Of a DNA stretch of 64,000 bases, positions 24,335 to 44,800 are shown piece after piece (position 1 is the stretch's first letter; every line of letters starts with the position of its first letter). Made by a program: the position numbers and the translations under genes. The stretch is from contig JBAZTE010000008.1 in assembly GCA_041662065.1 (NCBI GenBank), forward strand, positions 78,595 through 142,594, in the 5' to 3' direction. This DNA is from Bacteroidales bacterium. GTDB lineage: Bacteria; Bacteroidota; Bacteroidia; Bacteroidales; UBA12481. Below the pieces are notes generated by a model that was not told the DNA's origin, made no database searches, and worked only from the letters and a program-made list of their open reading frames with translations.

Positions 24335-24366
24335 ATCGTTCCATTCTGTCTAGTAAATATCAACAT

Positions 24367-25296: not shown

Positions 25297-25300
25297 GATA

Positions 25301-26776: not shown

Positions 26777-26804
26777 AAGAGGTGTTAATTTTTAGAAACA
26801 ACAG

Positions 26805-26876: not shown

Positions 26877-27921
26877 TTAGGATATCGTTGACACCCGACG
26901 GCTGCTCCCGGGTCAGGCACATCCACAATTCTTTCTTAACCAGGTTAATGCAAACGACTCCCTTTTCAAAAAAGGCAAATCCGAGAACTCCGCTAATCGG
27001 GTACTTATAGGCCATAGCGAGTGCATCCAGGTTGGCGATGATAGTTTGCATGGGATGCAGCTGTTGGCCACAGAGGGTAAAATCATTCATGGTTCCGTAC
27101 ATAACCTCCATCTGTCCCCTTCCTGAGCCTGTGAGATCGGCGCCGCTGGTGATCGTTACCGTATTCAGTACCTTTTTGGAAGAGGAGCTGCTGAGGACAT
27201 TTGCTTCAGCGCCTGTATCAAGACAAAAAATAGCAGATTTACCCCCAATGTTAGCAGGCATGAATACTACTCCGTCTACTTCCTTGATCGGACTAATCAG
27301 GGTTGTTTTCAGGGTATCGGCCTCCGCACCGATCCTTTTGCCTGACCTGTCTATCCGGTGGAGCCGCAATTCGCTCCGGTTTACATCGATCACTATTTCC
27401 ATGTCCCTGAACAGGTTCAGCCCGAACAATCCGAGAATTTTCACTCCACGGCGGTTCTCGATATGCTTAAGACTGATCACATCGGCCGGAACATTTTCAA
27501 AATATAGATCGGAAATATCGATCCTGGGTACACGGGTTTGATAAAGTTTTTCCGCACTCCCTGTTATGCCGCATGTTTTCGCATCAACCTCCCACAGGCC
27601 CTTCCGGAAATAGGTGTGGTTCAGCACCAGACTGCTGGCACCGGTGTCGAATACAAAATTACCGGTTTGATCACCAACCCTTGCTTCGATCAGGAATAGC
27701 TTTCCGACACGTTTCAACGGTATGGTTAGCGACTGAAAATCTCCCATCGGTTCCACGCCTGTATTCGATGAATTCCCGGTCAGTAGGCCCTGGTTAACCG
27801 ATATGAGCCCGGGATCTGGAGCTCCAGCCAGATAGGAACGGAAGGAGGTCAGTATCAGCAATATGGTCAGAAGCAGCATAGGACGGATCATCTTCCGGGA
27901 AAGGAAAAATACTTTAACCAA
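26824..27921 (-). CDS. secreted aspartic protease with two retropepsin-like lobes (365 aa)
   Basis: ORF track. It has two catalytic-type motifs, FVFDTGASSLVL and FCLDTGAEANVL, and an N-terminal signal/anchor. The last ~18 codons are encoded by module copy 7. Confidence 0.65.
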   Translation of the reverse strand: MVKVFFLSRKMIRPMLLLTILLILTSFRSYLAGAPDPGLISVNQGLLTGNSSNTGVEPMGDFQSLTIPLKRVGKLFLIEARVGDQTGNFVFDTGASSLVLNHTYFRKGLWEVDAKTCGITGSAEKLYQTRVPRIDISDLYFENVPADVISLKHIENRRGVKILGLFGLNLFRDMEIVIDVNRSELRLHRIDRSGKRIGAEADTLKTTLISPIKEVDGVVFMPANIGGKSAIFCLDTGAEANVLSSSSSKKVLNTVTITSGADLTGSGRGQMEVMYGTMNDFTLCGQQLHPMQTIIANLDALAMAYKYPISGVLGFAFFEKGVVCINLVKKELWMCLTREQPSGVNDILTAYHLILPLITISFANA

Positions 27922-29604
27922 CTAACAAATTTTAACAAATTTGGATGATACAGTTTTATTGTCTTTAGCATGAACCTTTATAAAATATACTCCCGGCTTC
28001 AAATCGGAAACATTAATCATTGGATTTAGCGAGTTTAACAGCTGATTGTAAACTGTCACACCCAGCATATTAATAATCATAACCGATTCAATATCTGCTC
28101 CTGCATAATTCAATTGAAGGAAATTCCCGGACGGATTCGGATAACTTGTCAGGATGCTTTCATCCGTGTCAAGTACTGATGCTACAATGCCCAATGAACC
28201 GTCCAATGCGATATTTTGCCCTCTTACTTCCTGATTTGGCGTGGGATCTCCCTCCAACCACGTTGCGACAATTTGTTTATCAGGAAACAGCCCCACTTTA
28301 AAAAAACTTTTTGGCTTAGCTGATGTAGCAAAACTAACCGGGTGAGTCCAATTGGCTTCACCTTTTTCAACAGTGTACGAGCCCATATAGTAATGAACAA
28401 TATCATTGAATCCCAGAGCCGGGTATACACCAAAAGCAATGTAGAAATTATCATGATCCATAACACTTGCTTCAATTCTATGGAAATCAGTGGAATCAGC
28501 AAACAGCGCTTTTCCGGTGGTTCCCCAGGCAATTTTTCCATTTCGCTCCACTTTCTGTCCAAAAATGGTCTTCCGCCATTGTGCCGGATCCTGCGTTCTT
28601 TGCCAGATTATGATTGTACTGCTATCTGATGCTTGTCCAACAACCCTGGGATAGAAATGGTGTATGGCCGGCTCCGAAGTAAGTGCTATACCGTTATCTT
28701 CCCAAAGCGTATTACCTGCACCATCTATCCTTTGGGCATAAGAAATCTCTAAACCATCGTGGTCCCTGTCATCATGCCAGGTAACAACAACTTCCCTGGT
28801 ATCCGTAATCAAGGCATCATATTGATCCCAGAAGACAATGCCTCCCGCATCCGACACGGTTTTATCATCTTGAAAAATGGCATTCCCCTCCTTATCAAAC
28901 AATTGATACAGAAGATTAATATCATAATCAGGATAAGTACCTGTCTTTTTCGTAAAAAGAAGCACAATATTTTCTCCTGTTGAAAAGACTTGTGCGCGTT
29001 CCGCGTTTGGAATGGATTTCCCCTGAATCCCCCAGGGCAGGGTTTTGTCGGGCGTAATTCTCTGAAAGAAAGAACCAATGGATTCTCCGTACCATCCGGC
29101 AGAAACAATTATTTCGTTTTCACTATTATAGGAAGCTGAAATACGGGTTATCCAATTATCTGCCATGGTTTCCATGATACTCACCCCGTCATTTCCCCAC
29201 AAAGACTCACCTTCCTGATTCAATTTATAACAGACCAACCCCTGTTTCCCGTTATCTCTGAAATCGCTGAAAACGATGACCAGATTACCCTCGTCATCAC
29301 TTAACATGACCTGCTCTTCGGCATTGGAACCCTGAGGATGTGAGCTGATCAGCAAACCATTTACATCCCATAGATTTTTACCGTCGACATCCAGCAACTG
29401 AACATATAAATTGTAATTGTTATTGTCACCCGATTGATAAAACCAGCTCACAAACAGTCTGTCATGTGTTGTTTTCACCGACTTCACACTGGTCATAATT
29501 CCGGATCTCAGCACAAGATTCTCCTCCGGGTTGGCATTCCATTGACCTGACAAACAATGAGTAATCAGTAATGCTATACTTATTGTTAAAACAATTCTTT
29601 TCAT
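27922..29604 (-). CDS. T9SS C-terminal-sorting-domain protein, propeller-like N-terminal region (560 aa)
   Basis: ORF track. It has a signal peptide, and the C-terminus reads YPNPSGNFLQLNY...GVYFIKVHAKDNKTVSSKFVKIC. Confidence 0.75.
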   Translation of the reverse strand: MKRIVLTISIALLITHCLSGQWNANPEENLVLRSGIMTSVKSVKTTHDRLFVSWFYQSGDNNNYNLYVQLLDVDGKNLWDVNGLLISSHPQGSNAEEQVMLSDDEGNLVIVFSDFRDNGKQGLVCYKLNQEGESLWGNDGVSIMETMADNWITRISASYNSENEIIVSAGWYGESIGSFFQRITPDKTLPWGIQGKSIPNAERAQVFSTGENIVLLFTKKTGTYPDYDINLLYQLFDKEGNAIFQDDKTVSDAGGIVFWDQYDALITDTREVVVTWHDDRDHDGLEISYAQRIDGAGNTLWEDNGIALTSEPAIHHFYPRVVGQASDSSTIIIWQRTQDPAQWRKTIFGQKVERNGKIAWGTTGKALFADSTDFHRIEASVMDHDNFYIAFGVYPALGFNDIVHYYMGSYTVEKGEANWTHPVSFATSAKPKSFFKVGLFPDKQIVATWLEGDPTPNQEVRGQNIALDGSLGIVASVLDTDESILTSYPNPSGNFLQLNYAGADIESVMIINMLGVTVYNQLLNSLNPMINVSDLKPGVYFIKVHAKDNKTVSSKFVKIC

Positions 29605-29637
29605 GTTTGAAACATTATATAAATTCTAAATTCCGAT

Positions 29638-31116
29638 TTACTCCAAAATGATCTTTTTGCGTAGGAGAGTTCCGTCAATATTCAGACTTAAAAAATAGAT
29701 GCCTGCCGGATTGCCGGGTAAGTTTATCGTGGCCAATTGACTGTTATGGATTGTGGCAGTGTAAATTTCCCTGCCGATCTGGTCGGTTACAGAAATGATT
29801 GCGCTTTTATATCCGGTGGTTCCAAAAGATAAATTTACTGTTTCCCTGGCCGGATTGGGAAAAACCTGAATGCTCTTTTCCAGAGCCTGCTCATCTATAC
29901 CGGATGCATCAGTTACACGTAAGGTGAATGTGGCCATTGCGGAAGCTGCGGCCGGATCAGTAGCGGTCACCTTCACATAGAATGAGCCCGCTTCGGTTGG
30001 TGTACCAATAAAGCTGCATGAATCAGGATCAAAACTTAACCAGGAGGGCAGGGGATTTCCATTGCTCAGGCTGGCGGTATAGGTGAGCGTGTTGTTCCCG
30101 TTGTCATCAATAAAGGAGCTGTCAGAAATGGCAAAACTATTGGATCGCCCGGTTTTAAATGTCTGATTTTGCAAGGTGTATCTCACATAGGGGGTAAAGT
30201 TGGTTTGCCGCAGGCTATCAATAAGATTGTCAATGGCTACCCAATAGATAAAGTAGGACGACAATGCGTTTCCACCGCGCATGAAAAACAGGTATTTATT
30301 GTCTTTTGTGACGAACGGACAAGCTTCCCAGTTAGGATTCGGGGTATTAACCTGCGGGCCGAGAGTTTTAGGATTGGTCCAGCGGCCATTGTCTGTTTTA
30401 TAGCTGATAAACAGGTCGCTCGCCGAACCTTCGATGAAACGGCAGAAGATGATATAGGATTCGTCCCTCGAGATAAAAAAATCATTTTCAGTCGCTGTTG
30501 TATTTATTGGTTTACCAAGGTTTTGTAAGGTTGTGTCGCCATTCCTGATATACAGATTGCAAAGATCTGTGGCTGACCCGGTAGAGGTTGGCGAGCCGGC
30601 CGTATAATAGTTTTTCAAATTGGTTTCCTGGAAATAGTGAGTATTGCGGTTCATGGATAACAATCTTTGGGGGACAGTCCAGCCGGTACCATTTCTCAGT
30701 GAATAGAATGTACAGGATAACGTATTGTTATTCAGGTTCTTTTGCATGTACATAATGCTGTCGTTAGGGGAAAGAGAGGGCGCAACGTATCCCTCAAATA
30801 CCACGAACGGGCCCTGCCAGCTGGTGCCGGAATATTTGTAATATTTTATCCGCGACGAAGTTGCCGGCCAATTGTCCAGTTCACCATAATAGATCTCCTT
30901 GTTATCGGTGGTGATAGTAATCCTTTCGGCAGCCGCTAGTCCGGGGGTGACGGGCAACTGGAATACCTTTGGAGTTATTCCGGGAACCTGTTGACCCAGA
31001 TACATACTGGCCGGAGGTATGGACTGGGCAAAGCATGCACTTGCTAAAAACAAAAGGACGATGGGAAGAAGACTGGTTTTAAAGGGTAATGCAAAGCGTA
31101 GATTAGTGTTTCTCAT
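29638..31116 (-). CDS. T9SS cargo protein: TolB-like propeller + Ig-like domain + T9SS CTD (paralogue 3)
   Basis: The ORF-track ORF extends to 31248, but that extension translates the operator module (…HLILPLITFSF…). The real start is most likely ATG 31116 (MRNTNLRFALPFKTSLLPIVLLFLASACFAQ). It contains LPSWLSFDPDSCSFIGTPTE, and the C-terminus reads FPNPARETVNLSF...GIYFLSLNIDGTLLRKKIILE. Confidence 0.8.
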   Translation of the reverse strand: MRNTNLRFALPFKTSLLPIVLLFLASACFAQSIPPASMYLGQQVPGITPKVFQLPVTPGLAAAERITITTDNKEIYYGELDNWPATSSRIKYYKYSGTSWQGPFVVFEGYVAPSLSPNDSIMYMQKNLNNNTLSCTFYSLRNGTGWTVPQRLLSMNRNTHYFQETNLKNYYTAGSPTSTGSATDLCNLYIRNGDTTLQNLGKPINTTATENDFFISRDESYIIFCRFIEGSASDLFISYKTDNGRWTNPKTLGPQVNTPNPNWEACPFVTKDNKYLFFMRGGNALSSYFIYWVAIDNLIDSLRQTNFTPYVRYTLQNQTFKTGRSNSFAISDSSFIDDNGNNTLTYTASLSNGNPLPSWLSFDPDSCSFIGTPTEAGSFYVKVTATDPAAASAMATFTLRVTDASGIDEQALEKSIQVFPNPARETVNLSFGTTGYKSAIISVTDQIGREIYTATIHNSQLATINLPGNPAGIYFLSLNIDGTLLRKKIILE

Positions 31117-31151
31117 TTTTCCTTGAGTTGTTTGTTTTATAAATTCAGTCT

Positions 31152-31220
31152 CAAAGGAAATGGACAACCAACCTTTATCAAAGGAGAAAGTGATAAGCGG
31201 TAGTATAAGGTGATAACCGG
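31152..31220 (-). promoter_or_regulatory. operator+promoter module copy 8
   Basis: The reverse complement reads CCGGTTATCACcttatactaCCGCTTATCACtttctccTTTGataaaggttggttgtccaTTTCCTTTG. It lies 35 nt upstream of ATG 31116. Confidence 0.65.
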
Positions 31221-31278
31221 TTTTAATACCAAAAGTATGAACATGCAAATTGTTTTCATTTTCTTCAGCAGTTGGTAT

Positions 31279-32223
31279 CTATTTACTCTTTAAAAATTCA
31301 ATTGTCTCTCTAATTCCTTCACTATATGATTTCGGACTATAATTGAAATGCTTATTGAACTTTGATGAATCAAAATGATACTCATATTCGCTCTGGTAAA
31401 GCATCTCATAAGCCTCTGATATGGTCTTATTAAATAATCCGACCATTTTAATCAGTAATTTTGGCAATACAGAATACTTGGATGCAACTCCAATTTCCTT
31501 TGCCACTAAATTTATGAATGTTTTCCCATCTATTGCCGGATTATAAGTCGGCAAATGCCAGACTTGATTAAAAGCATTATTATTATTGGCAAGCAAGTAA
31601 AGTCCACTAGCACAGTCAATAGTATATGTGTACGAATGAGGTTGATTGACATTAACCATCCATTGAGCATTTTTGCCTTGCATCAATTTTTCAATTACCA
31701 TTAGATATGGAATACTTGTTTTAGTTGCATAAGGACCATATAAATCTGCAGCTCGGGCAATTATTGCATTCACATTATTTTGTGCAATTTCACTTTCTAA
31801 AAGTGTCGCAATCTTAGCGCGAATCTCTCCTTTTTTACTGCATGGATTGTATGGCGTTGTTTCTACCATTTTACCATCAACTTTGCCATACATATAAACA
31901 TTATCAAAAAATATCAACTTTGCTCCAATATTTTTGCAAGCATCAATTGTATTTTTCATAATCTTTGGCCATGTATTTTCCCAGACTTTCGTATCATAAG
32001 GAAGGCCAATACATAAATATACAATATCGGACTGCTTAACGCTCTCCAATGTTTCAGAATAAGATGTAATATCTGCTTTGACAGATTCTGCGCCTATGAT
32101 AGAAAACTTACTGCGTGAAACAAGTCTCACGTCTTGACCATTTTCTAATAATTTAAAAGCTAACGCATTTCCTATCGAACCGCCTGCTCCAAGAATTGTT
32201 TGTTTCATTTTCTCTGTTTTCAT
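31279..32223 (-). CDS. NAD-dependent epimerase/dehydratase-family (extended/atypical SDR) protein (314 aa)
   Basis: ORF track. It has the N-terminal Rossmann motif ILGAGGSIGNALAFKLL. Confidence 0.7.
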   Translation of the reverse strand: MKTEKMKQTILGAGGSIGNALAFKLLENGQDVRLVSRSKFSIIGAESVKADITSYSETLESVKQSDIVYLCIGLPYDTKVWENTWPKIMKNTIDACKNIGAKLIFFDNVYMYGKVDGKMVETTPYNPCSKKGEIRAKIATLLESEIAQNNVNAIIARAADLYGPYATKTSIPYLMVIEKLMQGKNAQWMVNVNQPHSYTYTIDCASGLYLLANNNNAFNQVWHLPTYNPAIDGKTFINLVAKEIGVASKYSVLPKLLIKMVGLFNKTISEAYEMLYQSEYEYHFDSSKFNKHFNYSPKSYSEGIRETIEFLKSK

Positions 32224-32237: not shown

Positions 32238-32726
32238 CTAATATTTTAATTTTTGTTCTAACACTTTGTCATGCGGTTCAATGAATCCAAATCGTCTATA
32301 AATTGGTTCTCCGTCTTGAGTCGCATGCAGATCAATCCGGTCAAGGTTCCTTTGTTTTGCTTCATCGATAAGCTTTTGGAAAAGAAGGGTCCCAATTCCA
32401 TTGTTTCTAAACTCTTTTAGGGTGAACATGTTTAAAATATACCCGGTCTTTCCATTTGGGATCTCAAAATTTCCAGGTTGCTCTCTGATTACCATTCCGC
32501 TGAACCCAATTGATTTGTTATCAAATTCGGCAATCCAAGAAATGAAGGAATCGTTTTCTATCGATTTTGTGAAATACTGTCTTAAAGATTTTCTTAGGCT
32601 TAATTCGAGTTTTTTGCCAGGAATACCTTGCACTTCTTGTAGGAAGATGATTCTGTATTCGATAATAGTTTCAATGTCTGAAATGGTAACCTTTTTTAAT
32701 GTAACCTTATTTTTATCGATTTCCAT
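32238..32726 (-). CDS. GNAT-family N-acetyltransferase (162 aa)
   Basis: ORF track. It has the acetyl-CoA binding-type segment RNNGIGTLLFQKLIDEA. Confidence 0.75.
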   Translation of the reverse strand: MEIDKNKVTLKKVTISDIETIIEYRIIFLQEVQGIPGKKLELSLRKSLRQYFTKSIENDSFISWIAEFDNKSIGFSGMVIREQPGNFEIPNGKTGYILNMFTLKEFRNNGIGTLLFQKLIDEAKQRNLDRIDLHATQDGEPIYRRFGFIEPHDKVLEQKLKY

Positions 32727-32820: not shown

Positions 32821-33732
32821 TCAGGCCCCGCCGATACTGACAATGCGGTTACCGTGCTCCAACGTATTTCTTAAACTTTCCAGATCCTCCGAATTCATTG
32901 AGGGAATTCCTGTCTGCACCTGATGCGTGTATATCGACTTTAGTTTGTCCTCCCCGAAACGGTGATAAGGCAATAAATGTATTTCTTTAGCAGCAGCAGT
33001 TGTAAGAAATTGATCCAGAAGCGATATCTTATCTGGTTCATAATTTATTCCCGGTATAATTGGAATGCGAAAAACAACATGACTTTTCTGTTCAATAAGT
33101 TTATACGCATTTGATAATATTCTAACATTATCTATACCCGTATTCGTTTTATGTAATACCGGATCAATACCTTTAATATCAAAATAGAAAATATCAACAT
33201 ATCTGGTCAGTAATTTTAGTTTATTCCAATGCAATATCCCGGAAGTTTCCAGAACAATGTGATAACTCTCGTTTTTCAATGCCTCCAGCAGATTCACAAG
33301 AAAATCGTATTGTAATGTTGGCTCTCCGCCTGAAATTGTTACACCGCCACCCGAACGTGAGTAAAATGAGGTTTCTTTTCTGATTTCAACCATGATTTCT
33401 TCGACAGTCATTTGTCTGCCTATCATTTCCAAGGCTTGCGACATACAAACTTCTGTGCATTTTCCGCAATTGTCACAAACCGCCCAGTCAATTCTATGGG
33501 TACTTTTCAGATCAATCACTTTGAGGGGACAGGCTTGCTGACATTTTTTACATGAAATACATTTGGATGCATGAAAGGATATCTGCGGCCAGGGATATAT
33601 CGACTCAGGATTTTCACACCAGAGACATCTCAAGGTACAACCCTTGAAAAAAATAACCGTCCGTATGCCCGGTCCGTCGGACAGACAATAATTTTGAATA
33701 TTGAAGATAGTGCCTTTCATGATTGATTTCAT
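32821..33732 (-). CDS. glycyl-radical enzyme activating protein (radical SAM, with two auxiliary 4Fe-4S motifs) (303 aa)
   Basis: ORF track. It has GPGIRTVIFFKGCTLRCLWCENPES (CxxxCxxC) plus CISCKKCQQAC and CDNCGKCTEVC. It overlaps the GRE stop by 4 nt. Confidence 0.9.
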   Translation of the reverse strand: MKSIMKGTIFNIQNYCLSDGPGIRTVIFFKGCTLRCLWCENPESIYPWPQISFHASKCISCKKCQQACPLKVIDLKSTHRIDWAVCDNCGKCTEVCMSQALEMIGRQMTVEEIMVEIRKETSFYSRSGGGVTISGGEPTLQYDFLVNLLEALKNESYHIVLETSGILHWNKLKLLTRYVDIFYFDIKGIDPVLHKTNTGIDNVRILSNAYKLIEQKSHVVFRIPIIPGINYEPDKISLLDQFLTTAAAKEIHLLPYHRFGEDKLKSIYTHQVQTGIPSMNSEDLESLRNTLEHGNRIVSIGGA

Positions 33733-36203
33733 TTGTGATATTCGGTACGCGAAATAATTTCATCCTGGGTAAACTTGGTTAGCTCAACGAATCTGGCACT
33801 ATAGCCCGAAATTCTTACCAGCAAATCCTGATAATTTTCAGGGAACTGCTGTGCCAGTTTTAAGGTCTCAGCATCCACAACGGTTGCCTGAAGATTCTGT
33901 CCATTATAATCATAAAAATAGGCCAGTATCATATTTTTAAATCTTTTGATCTTGTCAGTGGAGTTAAAAAGAGATGGATTGAATCTTAGATTTACTGACA
34001 CCCCTGAAATGACTTTTGAAAAATTCAGCTTGCTCACTGATTTCAGAGTGGCTGTGTAACCTTTTTTTTCTCTTCCCCTTGCGCTTCCGGCACCTATGGA
34101 AAAAGGTTCCATTTGTTTCCTTCCATCAGGAGTTGCTCCGGTTACAAAACCAAGCACAACATGACCATTTTCAGAATGTACACCAATAGTGTGTTTGCCA
34201 TTCCTGAAAGTACTGTATTTTGAAGCCTCGGTGGAGCAGAAATTCGCCACATCCTGAGCAATCAGGTCAACACAGTCAATGTCATTTCCGTATTTTGAGA
34301 TTTTGTTGAGCAGATATAATCTGTCGTGTTCATAGCCATCAAAATTCTGGCGTAACATTTTTTTGAGTGATTTCAGAGAATATACCTGATCCTCAAAAAC
34401 GGCTTTTTTTACTGCTATAAGGGAATCTGCCAACGTTCCAAGTCCGAGTAATGATATCCCGGTCAGATTGGTTTTTGCTCCTCCTGATTTAACATCAAGA
34501 CCGCTTTTCATTGTTCCGTCAACAAGAGCAGATATCAGCGTATTAGGCAATAACTCTTTATGCGCTTTGTCCACCTTCATCAGTGTGATGGTGACATTTT
34601 TTATAACCTCCGATAAATAGCCCTTATATGATTCGTAAAAATCTTCATATGAATTGTAATCCTGATTCCTTTTAAGAAATAGTTCGAGCGTTCGGGGCAA
34701 TACCAAATGGGCAGCGCAAACTGAGCCATACGTTGAGGCAGGAATGGGTTGTACACACCCCGATAGGAGATAGTTTCTGGCATCCTCTAATGGAATACCG
34801 TTATTTATAAATCCCTGAATAATAGTCTCGTCATTAAAAATCTGAACGGTATTGGCGCCACTGCTCATGATACTCGTGACCAGATCCAGAAATTTGTCAG
34901 GAGTACCTTTATGGAGCCGTACTGCCGGATTAGGCTGAATCATCCTGCAATTGGAAAGAGCCTCAAGGAAAAGATACGAAACCTCATTTGTAGCATCTTC
35001 CCCATTACTGTCGACACCACCGATGGTCAGCGTTAGCCTGCCGCTATTCCCGTCTTCGAAAAAACTTGCCCCATTATGAAGTAAAAATTCTATTTCATTT
35101 ACTTTTAATACAAAGCATTCAATCAGTTCCAATGCCTGAACCCGGGTAATTCGGCCTTGTTTAATATCTTCTTGATAAAGAGGGTCCAAAACCTGGTCCC
35201 ATCTGCCAAAAGGTACTTCGTGTCCGCAGTCGTCATTCAAAACCGCAAGATACATGAACCACAGTGATTGAATCCCTTCATGAAAAGTGCGTGGAGGGTT
35301 TGCCGGGACATGGCGGCATATCTGAGCAACTTTCAATAACTCAGCTTTTCTTTGAGGAGATTCTGCCGTTTTCTCCATCGATTCAGCCAATGCTGCATAT
35401 CGGTTGGCTAATGTAATTACCCCGCGCATTGAATCGGCGAGGGCAATATAAAGATCATTGTTCCAAACTATTTTATATTTTTCGGCCTCACCAATGATTT
35501 GGTTCAGTCCTTTTTGTACTGTTTTTTCAATATTGGGATGGAACAGGAAAACTCCGCCTCCAAAAGCGTGTTCAGCTAAATAATTAAACTGATTCATCAG
35601 TGATTTCTCTTCTCTGGAAAGATAAGTTCGATAAAGGGAGTAAGCATTTTTTCCCTTCCAATAAGGAATTATGATATTTTCCAGATCAAGCTTTTCCTTT
35701 GTTCCGATAAGGAATCGCTGTGATGCCCGATTTTCCGGATTATCGAATTTCATATTAAATAACAACTTCGCTGAAGCCAGTTGCATCCCCAGAAATTTAT
35801 CGAACCTGTATATTAATCGGGAACTTGTATCGGTAATTGTAGTAAGTGTCCTTTTGAAAAGTTGATTATGTTTTCCTCCTGTTGACATCCCGTCAATATT
35901 GGTTTCCGGAGATAAAAACGCACCTTTTCTTTTTTCTGTGATGCCGCCCACCAAGAGCTCGTCATCGTAAATTTTGATTGGAATATCTTCCATTAGTGTC
36001 CGAAATGCAAGAGACCGTTTAAGTAATAGTGCTTTTTCACGGTTTTGCTCGAACACTTCGGTAAATACTCTTCCCCGGACAGACGAAATTTCACGAATTG
36101 TGGATTGTATGGTTTTTTTGAGCGCCCTTGTCCTGATTGTGGACATGGTATATTTATGTTTTTCGTAATTCATTTTGTCCTGGTGAATTTGTTGGAGCTC
36201 CAT
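33729..36203 (-). CDS. glycyl radical enzyme of the PFL2/glycerol-dehydratase-like class, substrate unknown (824 aa)
   Basis: ORF track. The glycyl radical motif is VRISGYSARF (Gly800, codon 33804-33806). The Cys loop is ARNYLLSGCVQP (Cys483, codon 34755-34757). The Cys-to-Gly distance (317 aa) is as in known GREs. Confidence 0.9.
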   Translation of the reverse strand: MELQQIHQDKMNYEKHKYTMSTIRTRALKKTIQSTIREISSVRGRVFTEVFEQNREKALLLKRSLAFRTLMEDIPIKIYDDELLVGGITEKRKGAFLSPETNIDGMSTGGKHNQLFKRTLTTITDTSSRLIYRFDKFLGMQLASAKLLFNMKFDNPENRASQRFLIGTKEKLDLENIIIPYWKGKNAYSLYRTYLSREEKSLMNQFNYLAEHAFGGGVFLFHPNIEKTVQKGLNQIIGEAEKYKIVWNNDLYIALADSMRGVITLANRYAALAESMEKTAESPQRKAELLKVAQICRHVPANPPRTFHEGIQSLWFMYLAVLNDDCGHEVPFGRWDQVLDPLYQEDIKQGRITRVQALELIECFVLKVNEIEFLLHNGASFFEDGNSGRLTLTIGGVDSNGEDATNEVSYLFLEALSNCRMIQPNPAVRLHKGTPDKFLDLVTSIMSSGANTVQIFNDETIIQGFINNGIPLEDARNYLLSGCVQPIPASTYGSVCAAHLVLPRTLELFLKRNQDYNSYEDFYESYKGYLSEVIKNVTITLMKVDKAHKELLPNTLISALVDGTMKSGLDVKSGGAKTNLTGISLLGLGTLADSLIAVKKAVFEDQVYSLKSLKKMLRQNFDGYEHDRLYLLNKISKYGNDIDCVDLIAQDVANFCSTEASKYSTFRNGKHTIGVHSENGHVVLGFVTGATPDGRKQMEPFSIGAGSARGREKKGYTATLKSVSKLNFSKVISGVSVNLRFNPSLFNSTDKIKRFKNMILAYFYDYNGQNLQATVVDAETLKLAQQFPENYQDLLVRISGYSARFVELTKFTQDEIISRTEYHK

Positions 36204-36245: not shown

Positions 36246-37064
36246 CTATCTGCCTGGTACAATGGTAGTATCCCAAACATCGGAATAATAAATTCCGAAA
36301 TTCCCCAGTGCCCCGTTATCGAAATTGCCGATCGGGTTATAAGGTGTTGCCGAAATAAAACCAGGCAGGCCCATATCATTGATTTGTTCATAATAAGAAT
36401 AACTGACGGAATCAATGCATTGGAACTCCAGGCAAACGGTATCACCAAGCTGAAAATCATATTCATCAAGTGGCATGTTGACTTCAGCCCCGTCGAACGG
36501 CTGGTCATTGTTAATCGAAATACTTCCGGGCACTATCTTGCCATTTTTACTTACTTTAAACCGGTAGTAATTGGCTATTCCGGCCGGATCCTTCCACTTA
36601 GGGCTCAGGAGAAATACCAAGGGACTGTTTGGGCCGGGACCTCCGAAACCCATGACCACGTTCAGGCTGTCAAGGTTTACCCTTACCGGAACTTCAGTTT
36701 TCGCTAAGAAAATTTCTCCTGATGATAGGGTCACGCTGAGATTGAAAACATCACCCGGACTAACAGTTAAACCATTGGCAAAATAAAAACCCGGTGTATC
36801 CTCCGGTAAAGTTTTAATTAACCCTGATTTGTTCGTCAATTCAACTTTGGCGCCAATAATTTTTGGCAGGGACTCGGTATGGTAAAAATCGAGGGAATGA
36901 GTGAGGAAAACATTGCACTCGCCCCGACTGGCGTTCAATGTGGCATCTATCACTACCCGGGATGCTGAGTTCTTCAGGTCCAGCTTGATTACATCTTCGC
37001 ACGAAGTCAAAAATAGGACCGGAGCGAAAATCAGAAGAAACGGAATTATTAATAGTCTTTTCAT
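36246..37064 (-). CDS. DUF4249-type lipoprotein (usual partner of CarboxypepD_reg-type TonB-dependent receptors) (272 aa)
   Basis: ORF track. It has a lipobox LTSC, and its size and position directly after a TonB-dependent receptor fit. The family is assigned from memory of this gene pairing. Confidence 0.55.
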   Translation of the reverse strand: MKRLLIIPFLLIFAPVLFLTSCEDVIKLDLKNSASRVVIDATLNASRGECNVFLTHSLDFYHTESLPKIIGAKVELTNKSGLIKTLPEDTPGFYFANGLTVSPGDVFNLSVTLSSGEIFLAKTEVPVRVNLDSLNVVMGFGGPGPNSPLVFLLSPKWKDPAGIANYYRFKVSKNGKIVPGSISINNDQPFDGAEVNMPLDEYDFQLGDTVCLEFQCIDSVSYSYYEQINDMGLPGFISATPYNPIGNFDNGALGNFGIYYSDVWDTTIVPGR

Positions 37065-37070: not shown

Positions 37071-39407
37071 TTAGAATTTAAAGTTCCAGGTAATGGAGGG
37101 TACAATTCCAAAAAGTGACAGTCTCACGGCTTCGGTGGTTCCCGGCACAGTTTTACTTTCCCTGAACGAGATGCTGTAAGCGTTTTTCCGGTCATAGACA
37201 TTGTATACCGAAAAATTGATGTCGGAACCCCATCTTTTCTTTTGCTTAAACTGGTAGGTAATCCCCAGGTCAAGCCTGTGGTAGTCAGGCATCCTTGATC
37301 CGTTTCTTTCAGTATAAAGGTTGATGAGAACCCCATCCACCATGTATTTCCCACTAGGAAAAGTTACCGCATCGCCGGTATAATAGATCCAGTTTCCTGA
37401 TAAGGTCAGCCGTTGGGCGATCTGGTAAGAAGCCACGATTGAAATATTGTGGGTCCGGTCCTGCCGTGCTGAAAACCATTGACCAAAATTGATGCGTTCG
37501 AATTGCTTTTCAGATTTTGCCAGGGTATAACTGATCCAGCCTGTAAGTTTCCCGCTGGTTTTGCCTGCCGAGAATTCCAGTCCGTAAGCGCGACCCCTTC
37601 CAAATTCAAGCTCTCCTTCAATATTTGGGTTTAAAAAAGTATTGGCGCCGTTCTTATAATCTACCAGATTGCTGAGGATCTTATAGTATGCTTCCACACT
37701 AAGATCCCAGTTTTTCTTTGGCAGATTCTTGAAGTAGCCGACCGATACCTGATCGGCTGTAGTCGGTTTGATCAGAGGAGTGCTGGGGGTCCACAAATCG
37801 GTAGGTAAGCTGGATACTGAATTCGAAAGGATATGAAGGTACTGAAACATCCGGTTGTAACTTGCCTTGATCGAATTTGTGCTGTTAATCAGGTAGTTTG
37901 CAGTAATCCGGGGCTCAAACCCAATATAGGTATTGTAGAACTTCCCGGATGAATAGGCAACCGAGTCCAGGATTTCCTTATGATCATTATAAGTTTTTAC
38001 TGTGGTTGGTCCTATATTGTTAAACAGGCTCAACCTGAAACCATAATTCATGCTGAACGAATTGCTGATTTTCTGTTCATTGGACACATAGATGCCGCTC
38101 TCCAGGGCCTGCTGAGGCTCTATATGGAAAGAGGGCAGGGTTGTATTCGACTCATTGCCCGGAGTAAAGTTCCCGGCTTTAAACTGATGATAAGTCGAAT
38201 TCCATCCGAAGCGGACCTGGTTGCTGGTATTCGGATACCAGGTAAAATCCTGCTTCAGGCTGTAATCAAGGATCCCTGAGGTCAACTTGAATGAGAAATT
38301 CCCGGCAGCCGCCATGAATCCATAATTATAATCGCTGTAAATGGCTGAAGTATTTAAAAACAAAACCTGGTTAAAAGTATGGTTCCACCGGAGGGTGAGC
38401 GTATTATTACCGGAATCGAATCCGACCTGCTTTAGATCGAAAATGTCCTTTCCCATATAACCGGATAAAAAGAGCCGGTCCTTATCACCCAGGATATAAT
38501 TGGCCTTTAAATTTAAGTCGTAGAAGTAAAGGGTCAGGCCGTCAGCAAGGTTGCTTACCGCTTTTAGGGCCACATCGGCATAGGTGCGCCTGCCGCTGAT
38601 CATGATGGAAGACTTGTCTTTAACCAGAGGACCCTCCACGGTAAGGCGCGATGAAATCAGTCCGATGCCTCCGGTAACCCCCCATGACTTTGAGTTCCCG
38701 TCCCTCATCCGGATATCAAGAACAGATGAAACCCGGCCACCGTATGGAGCCGGAATACCCCCCTTGTACAGTTTTACATCTTTTATGGCATCGGAATTAA
38801 ACACCGAGAAAAAACCCAGAAGGTGGGATGCATTATATACCGGCGCTTCATCCAAAAGAATGTGATTCTGATCAGCTTCGCCTCCCCTGACAAAATAATT
38901 GCTGCCACCCTCACTGCTGGGGCTCACCCCTGGCAAGAGCTGAATAGCCTTAATAATATCCCTTTCGCCAAACAGCACAGGTACTAATTTCAATTGCTTG
39001 ATATCCAGCTTTATCGCACCCATTTCGAGACTCCTGACCGTATTTTTCATGCTTTTTCCGGTAATTTCCACGGTACCCAGCGAAGTGGCCTTTGGTTTGA
39101 GTTCCATATCCCTGTTAGTATCGGATTTCAGGTTCAGCTTCACTGCAACAGTCTCATAACCAAGATATGAGTATTGAATAGTATAATTTCCGGCCGGAAC
39201 TTTAACGGAATAAAATCCATATTGATTAGTAGTGGCCCCGGTATTCAGTTCAACAATCGCCACATTGGCAAATAAAAGGACTTCACCGTTCGCTGCATCC
39301 TTTATGTACCCGCTTAATGAGTACTGGACCTCTTTACCGGCGATCAGATTACAGGGGATCAGCCAAACAAAAGCGAACAGACAGAATAAGAGAAATTTTA
39401 ACTTCAT
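37071..39407 (-). CDS. TonB-dependent outer-membrane receptor with N-terminal CarboxypepD_reg-like domain
   Basis: ORF track (to 39458). The signal peptide MKLKFLLFCLFAFVWLIPCNLIAG argues for a start at 39407. It has a SGYIKDAANGEVLLFANV regulatory-like domain, a plug region (…RGGEADQNHILLDEAPVYN) and a C-terminal aromatic end ITWNFKF. Confidence 0.85.
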   Translation of the reverse strand: MKLKFLLFCLFAFVWLIPCNLIAGKEVQYSLSGYIKDAANGEVLLFANVAIVELNTGATTNQYGFYSVKVPAGNYTIQYSYLGYETVAVKLNLKSDTNRDMELKPKATSLGTVEITGKSMKNTVRSLEMGAIKLDIKQLKLVPVLFGERDIIKAIQLLPGVSPSSEGGSNYFVRGGEADQNHILLDEAPVYNASHLLGFFSVFNSDAIKDVKLYKGGIPAPYGGRVSSVLDIRMRDGNSKSWGVTGGIGLISSRLTVEGPLVKDKSSIMISGRRTYADVALKAVSNLADGLTLYFYDLNLKANYILGDKDRLFLSGYMGKDIFDLKQVGFDSGNNTLTLRWNHTFNQVLFLNTSAIYSDYNYGFMAAAGNFSFKLTSGILDYSLKQDFTWYPNTSNQVRFGWNSTYHQFKAGNFTPGNESNTTLPSFHIEPQQALESGIYVSNEQKISNSFSMNYGFRLSLFNNIGPTTVKTYNDHKEILDSVAYSSGKFYNTYIGFEPRITANYLINSTNSIKASYNRMFQYLHILSNSVSSLPTDLWTPSTPLIKPTTADQVSVGYFKNLPKKNWDLSVEAYYKILSNLVDYKNGANTFLNPNIEGELEFGRGRAYGLEFSAGKTSGKLTGWISYTLAKSEKQFERINFGQWFSARQDRTHNISIVASYQIAQRLTLSGNWIYYTGDAVTFPSGKYMVDGVLINLYTERNGSRMPDYHRLDLGITYQFKQKKRWGSDINFSVYNVYDRKNAYSISFRESKTVPGTTEAVRLSLFGIVPSITWNFKF

Positions 39408-39474
39408 GAATTTTTCAAATAAGTATTTAAGAAAGAAGGATATAGCAATTATTGCCATAAAAAAAATGAAACCG

Positions 39475-39549: not shown

Positions 39550-40272
39550 CTAAGCCAGATCTTTCAGTTTACCGGCAAACCTGCGGCTGATTTCCAGGGG
39601 TTGGGACAGGTTTTTTAAGTATGCCAGGTGAAGAGTGTTGGATTTCTTTTCAATACGATCGATATGGTCGATGTTAATAATGCACGACCGGTGAATCCTG
39701 ATAAAGTGATTGGCAGGAAGCTCTTCATTCCACTGTTTCAGTGTTTTCAATACGAGGGAGCACTTTCCTTCCAGGGTAGTGATCCTGGAATAATTCCCTA
39801 CCGGGCAAATATGGGTAATGGAACTGATTTTAATAAACGTTGATCTGGAATTTGTTAACCGCACATAAATGCTGTCGGAATATTCATAAACCTTGGTGGT
39901 CTTGTCAGATTCGGTTTTTGAAGTGAGAATACGGTCGAGCGAAGTCTTCAGCCGCTCTGGGCTTACCGGTTTCAGCAGGTAATCGGCAGCATTCACCTCA
40001 AAGGCCCGTATGGCATATTCGTCAAAGGCGGTCACAAAGATAATTTCGATGGAATTGTCGGTCATTTCCAGCAGATCAAAGCCGGTTTCCCCGTTGAGCT
40101 GAATATCGAGAAAGACCAACCCGGGCTTATACAGCCTGATCAATTCCACGGCGGTGCTGCACGAAGCGGCTTCTCCAATGATTTCGACACGCGGGTGCGA
40201 TTCAAGCAGTTTACGGAGGTTGACCCTCGCCAACCTTTCGTCATCGACAATAATGGCTTTCAGGGTTTTCAT
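39550..40272 (-). CDS. LytTR-family two-component response regulator (240 aa)
   Basis: ORF track. The receiver domain reads IIVDDERLARVNL...LVFLDIQL. The C-terminal LytTR-type segment reads FIRIHRSCIINIDHIDRIEK. Confidence 0.9.
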   Translation of the reverse strand: MKTLKAIIVDDERLARVNLRKLLESHPRVEIIGEAASCSTAVELIRLYKPGLVFLDIQLNGETGFDLLEMTDNSIEIIFVTAFDEYAIRAFEVNAADYLLKPVSPERLKTSLDRILTSKTESDKTTKVYEYSDSIYVRLTNSRSTFIKISSITHICPVGNYSRITTLEGKCSLVLKTLKQWNEELPANHFIRIHRSCIINIDHIDRIEKKSNTLHLAYLKNLSQPLEISRRFAGKLKDLA

Positions 40273-40274
40273 CT

Positions 40275-41414
40275 TTATGACTGATCAAATTCAATTTCAA
40301 TGGCGGCGGTCACCCACCCGTTATCGGCAGTAAGGGAAAAGGAATACTTATCGTTATAGAACAAGGCTAGGCGGTTCTTGATGTTCTCGATGCCGCTGCC
40401 CGTACCATTCGTGCCTGATTTATCCGTATTCAATTTACCGGTATTTATAACCTTAATCAAAAGCAGCTTGTGTTTCAATTCAGTCGTAAGACGGATAACC
40501 AGTTTTTGCTCATTCGACTTGATGCCATATTTCACGGCGTTTTCAACCAGCAGGTGAATCACAAATGAGGGGATTAATATTTCTCGCGTGGCTTCGGCGA
40601 CGGAAATCTCATATTCAAAATTCTCCTCAAAGCGTGTTTTCTGAATTTCGAGATACTTGACAACCGCTTCAACCTCTTTCCCCACAGAAATGGCCTGCTC
40701 CTGCTTGTTAAGGGTATACCGGTAATAATCCGACATATCTACCACCAGTTTCTTGGCTTTCTCTGTGTTTTCATCGATCAGCGCATGGATGGAATTCAGT
40801 ACATTAAATAAAAAGTGAGGGTTGATCTGGTAATGGAGCATTTTGAGTTGTACCTCTTTCGCCAGAGCCTCAGCTTTATGCATTTCATCTTTTTGTTTGG
40901 CAAACTTGAGCTGAAGGCGGGTAAGATAAAAGGTCGTACTTAGAAAAAGAATGGCTGCCATAAGCCCGGGCGAATATTTTTTCAGGACATCCAGTGTTAT
41001 CGGAGGTCGGTTGGTCCGGTACCAGAAAACAGTTTCGAGACCGGACGAAAAATAAATGAGAAGGGTTGGCCCGAAAATGGCAAAGACTAAAATCATGACA
41101 ATGAGCAGGGACACCCGTCTTTTTTTTATCGCCCATTTATAGGAAACGATCATCAGGAGAGCAAACGGTAATAAAGACAGAAACTCAAACAGTTGCTCCA
41201 ATAGTAAAATCTTGGTTTTGCCGGGGGTAGGCGGAAGCCAGGCCATCCAATCGAGGGTCCGGGTTATCTCGAGCAAAACCAGAACGATGAGCAGGTTGAA
41301 AAAATACGGGTACTTTTTGAAAAGCATGACAAACTTCCTAATATTCAGGCCAAATTTATGTATTTCCAAAACATTTAAAGGATTCTCGTTTGTGATAAGG
41401 GTAGTTTTTGACAT
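40275..41414 (-). CDS. membrane sensor histidine kinase of the LytS/YehU type (His_kinase + HATPase)
   Basis: ORF track (its TTG at 41417 is followed by ATG 41414). There are about 5 N-terminal TM segments. It has YQINPHFLFNVLNSIHALI (PF06580-type H region) and LLVENAVKYG (N-box). Confidence 0.85.
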   Translation of the reverse strand: MSKTTLITNENPLNVLEIHKFGLNIRKFVMLFKKYPYFFNLLIVLVLLEITRTLDWMAWLPPTPGKTKILLLEQLFEFLSLLPFALLMIVSYKWAIKKRRVSLLIVMILVFAIFGPTLLIYFSSGLETVFWYRTNRPPITLDVLKKYSPGLMAAILFLSTTFYLTRLQLKFAKQKDEMHKAEALAKEVQLKMLHYQINPHFLFNVLNSIHALIDENTEKAKKLVVDMSDYYRYTLNKQEQAISVGKEVEAVVKYLEIQKTRFEENFEYEISVAEATREILIPSFVIHLLVENAVKYGIKSNEQKLVIRLTTELKHKLLLIKVINTGKLNTDKSGTNGTGSGIENIKNRLALFYNDKYSFSLTADNGWVTAAIEIEFDQS

Positions 41415-41426
41415 CAAGACAGGAAA

Positions 41427-41759
41427 TCAAGACAGGAATTCACCGTCGATGATCAGTAATTTAACTGCTGTTTCGGCAATTGAACGGTGAGAGCTAAGTT
41501 CATCTGACACCACATAAGTCATTCCGGTGGTGAGGACAAATTTTTCACCGTTTTCCATCTCGCTTGTGAAATCTCCTTCCAGGCAATAGACTATATGCCC
41601 CTTATGACACCAGTGGTCGGCCACATAGCCTTTGGAATATTCCACGATCCTGATGCGTAATCCTTCAAATTGAACGGTTTGCCAAAAAGCAACTCCAGGT
41701 TCCCCCTGGTGTTCGGTCTTCGGAATGCTTGTCCAATCAATGGTCTGAAATGGTATCAT
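41427..41759 (-). CDS. small cupin-fold protein (110 aa), first gene of the kinase/regulator operon
   Basis: ORF track. Its size and beta-rich pattern, with VADHWCHKGHIVYCLEGD, resemble the single-domain cupin family with a DHCW-type motif. Confidence 0.55.
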   Translation of the reverse strand: MIPFQTIDWTSIPKTEHQGEPGVAFWQTVQFEGLRIRIVEYSKGYVADHWCHKGHIVYCLEGDFTSEMENGEKFVLTTGMTYVVSDELSSHRSIAETAVKLLIIDGEFLS

Positions 41760-41839: not shown

Positions 41840-44800
41840 CTATATATCTTTGATACACCTGAATCCAATGGTGGAGGAACGCTCATACCCCTGTGATACA
41901 CGGAGCAGTTGTTGCCTGTTAATCAGTGGAAGTGGTCCACCTTTAACATACCACCAGCTGGAAAAGAGATCAAAATAACACCCCCCTTTAAGGATGACGT
42001 AATCGATTGTCCCTGATCGGTATAAATCATTCGTAAGCTGCCAGACAGATCCTGTTAAATCCAACAGTCCCAAGGGATTGGCGCCTTCTGGATAAGTTCC
42101 AACGGGATCCATCACTCCATTGCCTGGATTAGAATATTTTCCGCTCGAATCCGGCTCATTCCCCCAGGGCCACTTTATATTCTTACCTGCCTGGGCTGCG
42201 TATTGCCATTCCTTTTCGGTAGGGAGGCGTTTTCCGGCCCATTGAGCGTAAGCCCTGGCATCTTCATAAGAAACATAGGTAACGGGATAATCTCCCCGGC
42301 CCACTGGATAATTTCCCTTACTCCAATCCAACAGAAAGCGCTCGTCATCTTTGGGTTGATATCCCGATTCTTCCAAAAACTTCTTAAATTCCTTATTGGT
42401 TACCGGATGAATATCCATCAGAAAACTTTCCATCGAAAATGTTTTTCCCATATCGGCTACCGGGTGTTTTACAAACCAGTCGCCAACCTGGGCAGCCTTG
42501 AATAAAAACTTGCCGGCAGGAATAACCACCATACCGGGCTCACCTGGCTTACCGGGAACGGTTGGCTCCACTACACTTGCTATTCTGGGCTGCCTGTAGG
42601 GTATATTCAGGGTACATTGTTCAATAACCTGGTCTTCATTCAGGAGCTGTACAAGAAGATCACCTTCATATACCCCGATGTTATCCAGGAGTTTGACTTT
42701 AGCTTCTCGGGCGTTCAGCTGGATTGGCGGTAAATCCTGATCATCCCGGGCAATCACCCGGAAAGAGTTTCCGGCATTGGCAGTGAGTATTAGTAAATCC
42801 TGTTCTCCCCTTAATTCTGCTTTCATTACGGGGGATTCAAAGTTGCTCTTTCCTTGTGAAGAGAGATATTGGGCCGGCTTTTTTATTAGGGACAGTTCTC
42901 CCTCCACAATGGATTCATCAATGATCTGACTTCCGTCAAACAACTGAATGACAACATACCTGTCCTTGGGAATTTTGCTCTTATATGAATCCCCAGGGAC
43001 CAGGCCCTTCAATTCTTCCAGGGGTTCATTGCTGTAAGAAGGCAATCCTTCCCAAACCTTTATACAGTCACCCCGGTCAGCTGAAATTATCAGTTTACCT
43101 GAACCAGCGGATGAAACCTTAAGAATCTTCTCAAACTGCCCGATACAACCCGACTGACCTTCGTTATTGGTTTTCAGGTATGCCGGATTAAACTTTGCAA
43201 TATCTACGGGTGCAAACCATTTACCATCCATGTGCAGAGGTTCAATTTCCCGGTGGTTCCAAAGGTCAACCAAATGGGTTCCGGTTTCCGGATTAACTTC
43301 GAATAGAAGTCCCTGATATCCAGTGGGTAAAATACTGAACATCGTATAGATTATTTTGTTACCAAATTCCCAGGCGTTAACCCAGATGCTGTCTGTTACG
43401 GTAGGTAAAAGCGGGGTATAGTTACCCTCAATGAAATTATGGCTGCTTTCTCTTAGTATCCTGGCTGTACGTCCCAGGTAGCAATAACTGTCCTCAAGCC
43501 AATCAATATTTGGGTTAACAGATAAATGTATATCAACACCATAGCCATTGAAAAAAGCCAGGGAGAAATTCCTCAGCATGCTTTCTTTTTCAATTACTGT
43601 TTGCTGAAAGCATGCAAAATCCTGACGGATCAGCTTATTCAGATTTAAAACCGGGGGATACTCCAAAGCAGCATGCACACGTCCAACCACGCTGTTTTGC
43701 ATGTCTTTGGGCACGGGCATTCCTTCGGGAAATATTACGATCCCCATTTTATACTGATCAAGTTCCTTTTGCAATAAGCTGTCTCCTTCGCTTCTGGTAT
43801 CGTACATCAGGCCCCAGAGGTTGGCTGCCTGAATGGTTTTACCCAGTCCCTCCGCATGTTTTTCACTTCGCGTGCTGTTGTGCAGCTCTTTATATCCGGC
43901 GGGAAGATCCCAGGGGTTGTATGCTGTAATTATATGATTACCATGACTTAAGGCCTCGTCACTGATTTTTCGGAGCGTATCCGGACCTCCAGGCAGACTT
44001 CTAAGCAAATCGAACTGATTTCGCTGATCAATTCCCAGAACAGGAAAGCCATGCCAAAGCGTAATACAATCATCTCCACCGAACAGCTGACGCATCTTTT
44101 CCTCAAAGGCTCCAAAGGTATAGGCCCCTGTCTTGTAATCATAAAAATAGTTATACCAGACCTGTACAAAATGGGAAACATAGGCTTCGCGAATCCATTG
44201 TTGGTCTTCTCTTTGAATAAGGTGTTCATCAAACTGTCCGGGTTCAACATCGTAGAGCATACGATCCTTGAACATCAGCTTCAGGCCCGCCTGCCAGGTC
44301 CCGATGAATGAGTCCATCCACATACTGTACCGCAGTGATCCTCCGGGGTAAAGGGCCGTAGAAAACCTGCTTTTCCCGATTCGGCTGCTTTGATCGATAT
44401 CTCTCCGTGTTAAGGCAGCAATACTGTTTCCATTATCCACATTGACCACACTGAATCCCAGCTCCCAGGCATTATCAGGGACAATGACATTGAGTGGCTG
44501 GTAATCTGGCCTGAACAGGTGTGTCATAGAAAGTGAAGGCTTGCCGTAGGAGGTAATGTACACATGCCGGTCTGATTCACCGAACGGAACGATGTTTGAA
44601 ATTTGCAATGTATCATTCGTAAGGTTAAAAAAGGTAATTTCAAACTTTAGTCCCTTGCTGCAAGGTACCTGCAGGTAGGAGATTTTTACGCGATCAAAAA
44701 CACCTGAATTGTCGGTCGTTTGCCCGGCCAGAGTTGTTTTTTTCTCCCCATTTAGTTGGAATGAGATCAAAGGCAAAGGATAAGCAGCTTTCTGCCATCC

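Follow-up and report, generated by a model that had tools for sequence, protein, structure and literature searches.

Glycyl radical enzymes (GREs) that catalyse 1,2-eliminations or isomerizations, among them glycerol dehydratase (GD), propanediol dehydratase (PD), CutC, HypD, IslA, HpsG, HplG, YbiW and PflD, use as general base a Glu located two residues past the thiyl Cys (CXE), and proton transfers in the eliminases are carried out by this loop Glu together with His164 (GD) or Asp216 (CutC). The CXE motif is kept in all characterised GRE 1,2-eliminases and isomerases (PMC13450708), and E-to-Q mutants of CutC (E491Q) and HypD are inactive (PMC7079210). Phenylacetate decarboxylase PhdB carries instead a -CXQ- loop (Cys482, Gln484), the Gln484 of which is given as essential (PMC13450708), with the variants Q484E, Q484A and Q484L being inactive (PMC7079210), and a curated active-site alignment displays its AGCVQ beside the IGCVE, MGCVE and SGCVE of eliminases (PMC6181972 Suppl. 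Fig. 10). The subject here is a GRE with the thiyl loop GCVQP, encoded next to its activase on a 64,000-nucleotide stretch of a Bacteroidales bacterium (contig JBAZTE010000008.1, positions 78,595 to 142,594; hereafter the window). The best explanation for its sequence features is a GRE class set apart from known eliminases, isomerases, decarboxylases, formate-lyases and X-succinate synthases, and the evidence for a new chemistry is stronger at Leu220, Glu329, Arg389, Cys496, His676 and Glu678 than at Gln485 of the thiyl loop.

The gene, its two radical sites and the activase gene are located as follows, with 'clade' denoting the family of close relatives delimited below:

33729..36203, minus strand: GRE of 824 amino acids (aa) with a PFL2-type fold, from the open reading frame (ORF) and its Pfam domains
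34749..34757, minus strand: thiyl loop Cys483 (TGT)-Val484-Gln485 (CAA), read from the sequence and aligned to Cys433-Val-Glu435 of glycerol dehydratase
33804..33806, minus strand: Gly800, the glycyl radical site in RISGYSARF, read from the sequence and invariant in the clade
32821..33732, minus strand: GRE-activating radical S-adenosylmethionine (SAM) enzyme of 303 aa, TIGR02494 323 bits (cut-off 174)

An initial annotation of this DNA had described an 824-aa GRE with the glycyl motif RISGYSARF and Gly800, which the ORF read and the Pfam matches (PFL-like PF02901, 7e-151; Gly_radical PF01228, 2e-23) confirm, and a GCVQP loop with Gln485 at 34749-34751 on the position of the eliminase Glu, which was found to be correct upon reading of the strand and alignment with the GD structure 1r8w. 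On the minus strand, 34760-34746 reads GGG TGT GTA CAA CCC, with Cys483 encoded at 34755-34757, Val484 at 34752-34754 and Gln485 (CAA) at 34749-34751. As phmmer aligns the query segment ARNYLLSGCVQP onto ARDYGIIGCVEP of 1r8w, and thereby GCVQP onto GCVEP (Cys433/Glu435), Cys483 is assigned as the thiyl Cys and Gln485 to the position of the CXE Glu. The PFL-like barrel with a C-terminal glycyl radical domain, the glycyl motif (superfamily pattern RVxG[FWY]), the thiyl Cys and a dedicated radical SAM activase beside the gene, all expected of the GRE superfamily, are present. An AlphaFold2 model built on the clade alignment (pLDDT 86) has its best solved-structure matches (Foldseek) in propanediol and glycerol dehydratases, with TM 0.87-0.88 and approximately 30% identity. 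The gene is intact and under constraint, with a dN/dS of 0.10-0.12 versus relatives.

The true start of the GRE is probably Met11 (36173), which gives 814 aa, judging from the homologues, which begin approximately 9 residues ahead of the MST motif, and from the identical protein P0001 on another contig, which has 814 aa and starts at ATG 36173 (Met11 of the longest ORF). The start-codon ambiguity spans 36171-36203 of the window; residue numbers follow the longest ORF (start 36203), and a Met11 start would shift all of them by 10.

There is a 4-nt overlap between the activase start and the GRE stop, and a functional GRE, co-transcribed with its own activase, is predicted to be encoded. The activase possesses a CX3CX2C motif (CTLRCLWC, residues 32-39, 33616-33639) and two ferredoxin-like Cys clusters, and scores 206 bits with the BssD model, the cut-off of which is 496. 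For 19 of 24 locus groups of the relatives it is found beside the GRE, as judged by a BLAST clustering into which a small number of proteins with ferredoxin domains, for instance HgcB-like ones, were also drawn, and it is the only consistently adjacent neighbour across 24 or more locus groups.

The clade to which the GRE belongs is a rare, horizontally scattered and uncharacterised GRE family. A word-indexed search retrieved 25 clusters with at least 44% identity and at least 699 bits, the next matches being at 35% and 474 bits, and an exhaustive HMMER search of 1.84 billion representatives gives the same score break. Clade members are found in 13 of 185,579 GTDB species from 7 or more phyla, with Chloroflexia, Prolixibacter, Spirochaetes/Treponema, Desulfobacterales/Desulfosudis, Polyangiaceae, Schekmanbacteria and Bacillota as hosts, and a metagenome collection holds 18 clade loci only. 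The window GRE remains below every curated NCBIfam cut-off, with 540 versus 678 bits for TIGR01774, a broad PFL2-3 subfamily model, 436 versus 1050 for CutC (TIGR04394), 404 versus 1100 for HypD, 407 versus 1000 for HpsG, 309 versus 1100 for IAD and 259 versus 1150 for HPAD. Structurally, the clade is marked by one insertion:

35748..35900, minus strand: helical insertion of approximately 50 residues (102-152) with three predicted helices, from phmmer and AlphaFold2

The phmmer alignment breaks here between query residues 101 and 153, which correspond to GD residues 89 and 98, and AlphaFold2 places helices at residues 111-153 with a pLDDT of 70-83. This N-terminal insertion is clade-specific, and between the Cys and Gly loops the segment lacks approximately 14 residues relative to other PFL2-type GREs. 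A Spirochaete metagenome-assembled genome (MAG; L015:657-10902, also L025) has a tandem array of three GRE paralogues and two activases, in which the first GRE alone belongs to the clade.

What distinguishes the clade is the active site, with strand positions taken from the 1r8w alignment and the published strand map (PMC6181972 Suppl. Fig. 10):

35544..35546, minus strand: strand S1, (V/G)GG(V/I)FLF, Leu220 in place of the general acid or leaving-group residue of eliminases (GD and PD His164; CutC Asp216 in the same column)
35217..35219, minus strand: strand S2, G(H/M)E, Glu329 in place of GD Ser282, invariant in the clade
35037..35039, minus strand: strand S3, EDGN(S/T)(G/A)R, Arg389 in place of GD Tyr339, invariant in the clade
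Thiyl loop (coordinates above): GCV(Q/E), Gln485 in place of GD Glu435
34716..34718, minus strand: strand S6, YGSxCA, Cys496 as invariant second Cys in place of GD Asp447 and PhdB Trp495
34170..34178, minus strand: strand S8, GxHSE, His676-Ser677-Glu678 in place of GD Tyr640-Pro-Ser642 and PhdB Tyr691-Ser-Val693

Across the clade, these signature residues show no or almost no variation, and they are missing from the eliminase outgroups; in the near-invariant HSE of S8, the sole change is Ser677 to Thr in 2 of 38 members. Both catalytic positions of the eliminases are replaced, and the new polar set, located at positions in contact with the substrate, consists of two Glu, a His, an Arg and the second Cys. 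Within this set, Glu329 is a candidate for a relocated acid/base group and Arg389 a candidate anchor for an anionic group of the substrate, as far as alignments can tell.

Position 485 behaves differently, being Gln in 28 and Glu in 10 of the 38 non-identical full-length members. As P0001 is identical and the 28 members encode their Gln by CAA or CAG, Gln485 is not a sequencing slip. In a neighbour-joining tree, the deep branches are all Gln and Glu occurs in at least four separate crown lineages (P0002; P0005; the P0007/L009/L010/L012/L022/L023 group; L008/L024), with the nearest outgroups of the clade carrying Glu or Ser. Gln appears to be ancestral in the clade and to have been replaced by Glu at least four times independently. 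The switch is accompanied by no other active-site change among the 38 members, P0002 (Glu) is 88% identical to the window GRE (Gln), and gene context is shared across it in three pairings:

L007 (Gln) and L008 (Glu): both followed by hgcA-like, hgcB-like and marR genes
L006 and L042 (Gln) and L023 (Glu): arsR with a CC motif directly upstream
Window (Gln) and P0002 (Glu): gene for a short-chain dehydrogenase/reductase (SDR) nearby

Since the exchange leaves active site and context unchanged, residue 485 does not seem to be an obligate acid/base group in the clade, in contrast to CutC and HypD, which are inactive upon E-to-Q exchange, and to PhdB, in which Q484E is inactive. The premise of the initial annotation, that the characterised 1,2-eliminases all keep Glu, is borne out by the literature (PMC13450708), but its suggestion that Gln points to a different chemistry or substrate holds in part: while a different substrate or chemistry is very probable, Gln is not its determinant. 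A characterised GRE with Gln in this position, the finding which that annotation had named as speaking against it, does exist in PhdB with its AGCVQ and essential Gln484, although this enzyme is a decarboxylase and not an eliminase. C-x-Q at the thiyl loop is not unprecedented, and Gln is neither unique nor decisive. C-x-Q also occurs in two uncharacterised GRE lineages outside the clade, P0192 (GCFQP) and P0233 (GCMQP).

On the basis of what is established here, namely the intact gene, its motifs, the clade, the conserved signature, the Q/E interchange and the gene neighbourhoods, we infer residue roles, a reaction type and a physiological role. The activase would install the radical on Gly800, from where it would move to Cys483 for hydrogen abstraction from a substrate held by Arg389, Glu329, His676, Glu678 and Cys496; a lyase-type bond cleavage would follow and the hydrogen atom would be returned from Cys483. 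Proton transfers may be carried out in the clade by Glu329, Glu678 or His676 instead of the eliminase residues, with residue 485 serving only as a hydrogen-bonding partner, and such a limited role would explain the free interchange of Gln and Glu.

As to physiology, the cassette in relatives would be under the control of ArsR or MarR proteins that contain vicinal Cys pairs. ArsR regulators are found in 9 locus groups, usually directly upstream of the GRE gene:

ArsR genes: L001:8638-8946, L006:1879-2187, L015:270-578, L019:7371-7676, L023:9643-9942
Further ArsR genes: L037:84-398, L042:7658-7954, L002:4569-4931, L044:5222-5551

Vicinal Cys pairs are present in all of these ArsR proteins, one or more in each and mostly at the C-terminus or close to it (GCC, NCC, QCC, SCCPDE, SCCKQ, NCCKD or CCPPDCC; two internal pairs in L044), and five groups (L001, L007, L008, L013 and L014) have MarR regulators in which a CC is located at the C-terminus. 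The Cys-pair ArsR and MarR proteins belong to unrelated families and resemble two-coordinate sensors of thiophilic ligands; SpArsR, an ArsR with a Cys pair alone, responds to methylarsenite and not to arsenite (PMC11868830).

Methylation genes recur in the same neighbourhoods. L001/L011 encode bona fide HgcA and HgcB proteins (391 and 112 bits, with cut-offs of 275 and 99), with hgcA/hgcB of L001 (823-2248) located 6 kb from arsR, GRE and activase, whereas in L007/L021 and L008 HgcA-like and HgcB-like genes, which keep the NVWCAAGK motif but remain below cut-off, directly follow the GRE gene, the HgcA-like copies of L007 and L008 having extra N-terminal membrane helices. L024 carries a truncated HgcA-like gene, the motif region of which was not recovered, followed by an HgcB-like gene. 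The hgcAB-like pairs are:

L007:2658-4078
L008:10600-11996
L024:3043-3713

An hgcAB or hgcAB-like pair is located within 6 kb of the GRE gene in four locus groups. L002/L016 encode ArsM (287 bits, cut-off 263), and MddA-like methyltransferases occur in four locus groups, three class I methyltransferases in L043 and a B12-radical SAM methyltransferase in L013. L002:4569-12387, from a Desulfosudis oleivorans MAG, is an apparent eight-gene same-strand run:

L002 run in order: ArsR, MddA-like, ArsM, DVU_1555-type C_GCAxxG_C_C protein, rhodanese, metallo-beta-lactamase (MBL)-fold protein, GRE, activase

Beyond these, a DGC-domain gene, arsR and glutathione synthesis genes are found in L044 and a MATE efflux pump in L019, while in L041 (4986-6563), the locus of P0002 as the closest relative with Glu, an SDR domain is fused to the C-terminus of the activase and two Zn-dependent alcohol dehydrogenase (Zn-ADH)-like genes are located upstream. 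In view of the regulators and the hgcAB, arsM, mddA-like and methyltransferase neighbours, the enzyme most likely helps its hosts to deal with thiophilic metal(loid)s or with methylated forms of these, and does not serve carbon catabolism. A connection of the clade with thiophilic metal(loid) stress or methylation stress is possible. Published surveys of hgcAB neighbourhoods name ArsR, arsM and MarR, but no GRE, and among the papers searched none links GREs to hgcA or to organoarsenic metabolism.

Taken together, a new functional class of PFL2-type GRE, with hydrogen abstraction by Cys483, relocated proton handling, anchoring by Arg389, hydrogen bonding by residue 485 and a link in many hosts to thiophilic metal(loid) sensors and methylation genes, is the reading to which we assign a probability of approximately 55%. 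Several points weigh against it. Residue roles derive from the alignment to structures and a published alignment and not from measured geometry, the clade tree is a neighbour-joining tree without support values, and the Glu variants might have shifted function despite their common context. The argument from gene context draws on relatives of 44-77% identity, metal(loid) and methylation genes being absent from the window itself, which contains no ars, mer or hgc genes. The neighbourhoods are, moreover, heterogeneous and could equally indicate sulfide/persulfide or electrophile stress, for which the rhodanese, the MBL-fold protein, weak BigR-like scores and the SDR or ADH genes are hints.

Part of the same evidence would fit a 1,2-eliminase (dehydratase or C-X lyase) for a new substrate, the base having moved to Glu329 or Glu678 and an aldehyde or ketone product being reduced by the SDR or ADH: PD, GD and CutC are the closest sequences and structures (approximately 30% identity, TM 0.88), two invariant Glu and a His line the inferred pocket, and an SDR gene is located two genes downstream in the window, just as P0002 has its activase-SDR fusion and two Zn-ADH-like genes. 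We nevertheless regard this as rather unlikely, as both catalytic positions are changed (Glu to Gln; His164/Asp216 to an invariant Leu), the score is below the TIGR01774 cut-off, aldehyde dehydrogenase or microcompartment shell genes are present at none of the listed loci, and SDR or ADH genes occur among the loci listed only in the window and L041, which confines the association to the closest Bacteroidota-type relatives. More doubtful still is an anaerobic carbon-metal(loid) lyase or demethylase, in which methylarsenite, methylmercury or a related compound would be bound at Cys496 and the C-As or C-Hg bond cut by the Cys483 thiyl radical, the displaced alkyl group leaving as methane or another hydrocarbon, with induction by the two-cysteine ArsR or MarR sensors. 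Such an activity would explain the repeated placement of relatives next to hgcAB and arsM, and is consistent with a pocket that contains an invariant second Cys together with His and Glu and with ArsR proteins that, like the methylarsenite-selective SpArsR (PMC11868830), have only a C-terminal Cys pair; that a literature search gave no GRE link to Hg or As can also be counted on its side. The evidence is, however, purely contextual and the window is devoid of these neighbours, a soft metal close to the catalytic Cys could poison it, methylase and demethylase in one operon (L002) are not obviously sensible, and there is no chemical precedent among GREs.

A PhdB-like arylacetate decarboxylase that yields a volatile hydrocarbon such as toluene is very improbable. 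While PhdB is the sole characterised C-x-Q GRE, its Gln being essential, and both systems are two-gene cassettes lacking downstream pathway genes in a GRE, activase and regulator layout, all other active-site elements differ, as does the Cys-to-Gly spacing (333 versus 317), and PhdB Q484E is inactive whereas the clade tolerates Glu. Orthology with PhdB was rejected, as its published active-site segments differ at every strand except for C-x-Q. A decaying or dead GRE paralogue, with the Glu-to-Gln change as the lesion, could be argued from the loss of activity of CutC and HypD upon E-to-Q exchange, but is hardly credible in view of the full-length ORF, the intact motifs, the own activase and a Gln that is conserved across phyla and ancestral in the clade; with a dN/dS of approximately 0.1, the pseudogene reading was rejected. 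Other GRE families were likewise considered and rejected. Pyruvate/2-ketobutyrate formate-lyase is at variance with the single Cys (GCVQ, no adjacent Cys-Cys) and the TIGR01255 score (165 versus 994), and X-succinate synthase with a loop that reads GCVQ and not C-M-[AS], no small subunit genes nearby and an activase below the BssD cut-off. As for the HPAD/IAD arylacetate decarboxylases, there is no CXE and no carboxylate-binding Arg on S1 (GGGVFL), and the scores are below the IAD and HPAD cut-offs.

In the window, the GRE and activase genes are part of a same-strand gene order of cupin, histidine kinase, LytTR, TonB-dependent receptor, DUF4249, GRE, activase, GNAT and SDR:

41427-41759, minus strand: cupin
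40275-41417, minus strand: histidine kinase
39550-40272, minus strand: LytTR regulator
37071-39458, minus strand: TonB-dependent receptor
36246-37064, minus strand: DUF4249
32238-32726, minus strand: GNAT
31279-32223, minus strand: SDR-type epimerase, two genes downstream

Histidine kinase, LytTR regulator and cupin are also located upstream of the GRE of P0003, which is 87% identical, and none of the window GNAT, SDR, TonB-dependent receptor and DUF4249 proteins clustered with neighbours of relatives. A tblastn search of the window with ArsR, MarR, HgcA, MddA-like, ArsM, rhodanese and C_GCAxxG queries gave only a weak MBL-fold match, and the HgcA cap-helix motif was not found in the window. 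The GNAT as the arsinothricin-resistance acetyltransferase ArsN was rejected, as NCBIfam gives just a weak rimI match. Promoter and terminator scans around the operon were at or below shuffle expectation, sigma-70 rules not being applicable to Bacteroidota. The window is chromosomal and from an anaerobic Bacteroidota-type host, with type IX secretion system (T9SS) sorting domains, pyruvate:ferredoxin oxidoreductase (PFOR), Rho, RpoD and phosphoenolpyruvate carboxykinase (PEPCK). The flank upstream of the two-component system (41840-48407) encodes a protein of 1028 aa that has an FGE-sulfatase domain at its C-terminus, together with a URO-D-like protein and a glycosidase of the melibiase/GH36 type; the downstream flank (22176-31248) encodes an esterase and an MBL-fold protein besides several He_PIG/PD40 proteins with T9SS sorting.

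With respect to annotation, predictions of GRE function usually rely on the Cys-loop motif, which, as the clade shows, can be misleading if taken by itself; the choice between Glu and Gln can be functionally neutral once the rest of the pocket is rebuilt. Its unusual conserved pocket, in which a second Cys and an Arg accompany a His/Glu pair, and its own activase make the clade a clean target for a new GRE reaction. Should the link with hgcAB, arsM and metalloregulators be true, the native purpose of HgcAB-type loci would become testable, as would the way in which anaerobes, without recourse to oxygen-dependent enzymes, cleave methylated As and Hg or withstand them; and should carbon-metal(loid) lyase activity be true, the clade would represent the missing oxygen-independent lyase/demethylase of anaerobes.

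Compared with the known systems, PhdB (UniProt A0A2P6WDZ5) is the only characterised GRE with a C-V-Q loop (AGCVQ versus SGCVQ here), and both enzymes are single-subunit and encoded in a stand-alone cassette with the activase. The strands differ in S1 (DDMGGM in PhdB, GGGVFL here), S2 (VH, HE), S6 (TDGTWEAR, YGSVCAAH) and S8 (SAYSV, GVHSE), so that Trp495 and Tyr691, essential in PhdB, and also His327, correspond to Cys496, His676 and Glu329, and the Cys-to-Gly segment comprises 333 residues in PhdB and 317 here; the PhdB numbering of Cys482/Gly815 was found in none of the top 150 representatives. CutC gives the top phmmer score (434 bits) and is of the same PFL2 class, with the columns of its Glu491, Asp216 and Thr502 occupied by Gln485, Leu220 and Cys496 in the curated alignment. 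Among the features of the eliminases, the CXE Glu, the polar leaving-group residue of S1 and a score above the curated family cut-offs are absent from the window GRE, and diol or aldehyde pathway genes are absent from the window. The best matches in sequence and fold are GD (1r8w) and PD (5i2g, 9rco-9rcr), with phmmer E-values of 7e-117 for 1r8w, 5e-107 for 9rco and 2e-106 for 5i2a. Relative to GD, an N-terminal insertion of approximately 50 residues and a Cys-to-Gly segment shorter by approximately 14 residues accompany the replacement of Glu435, His164, Ser282 and Tyr339 by Gln485, Leu220, Glu329 and Arg389, and further of Asp447, Tyr640 and Ser642 by Cys496, His676 and Glu678, while the 10-stranded barrel, the Gly and Cys loops and the type of activase are common to GD, PD and the window GRE.

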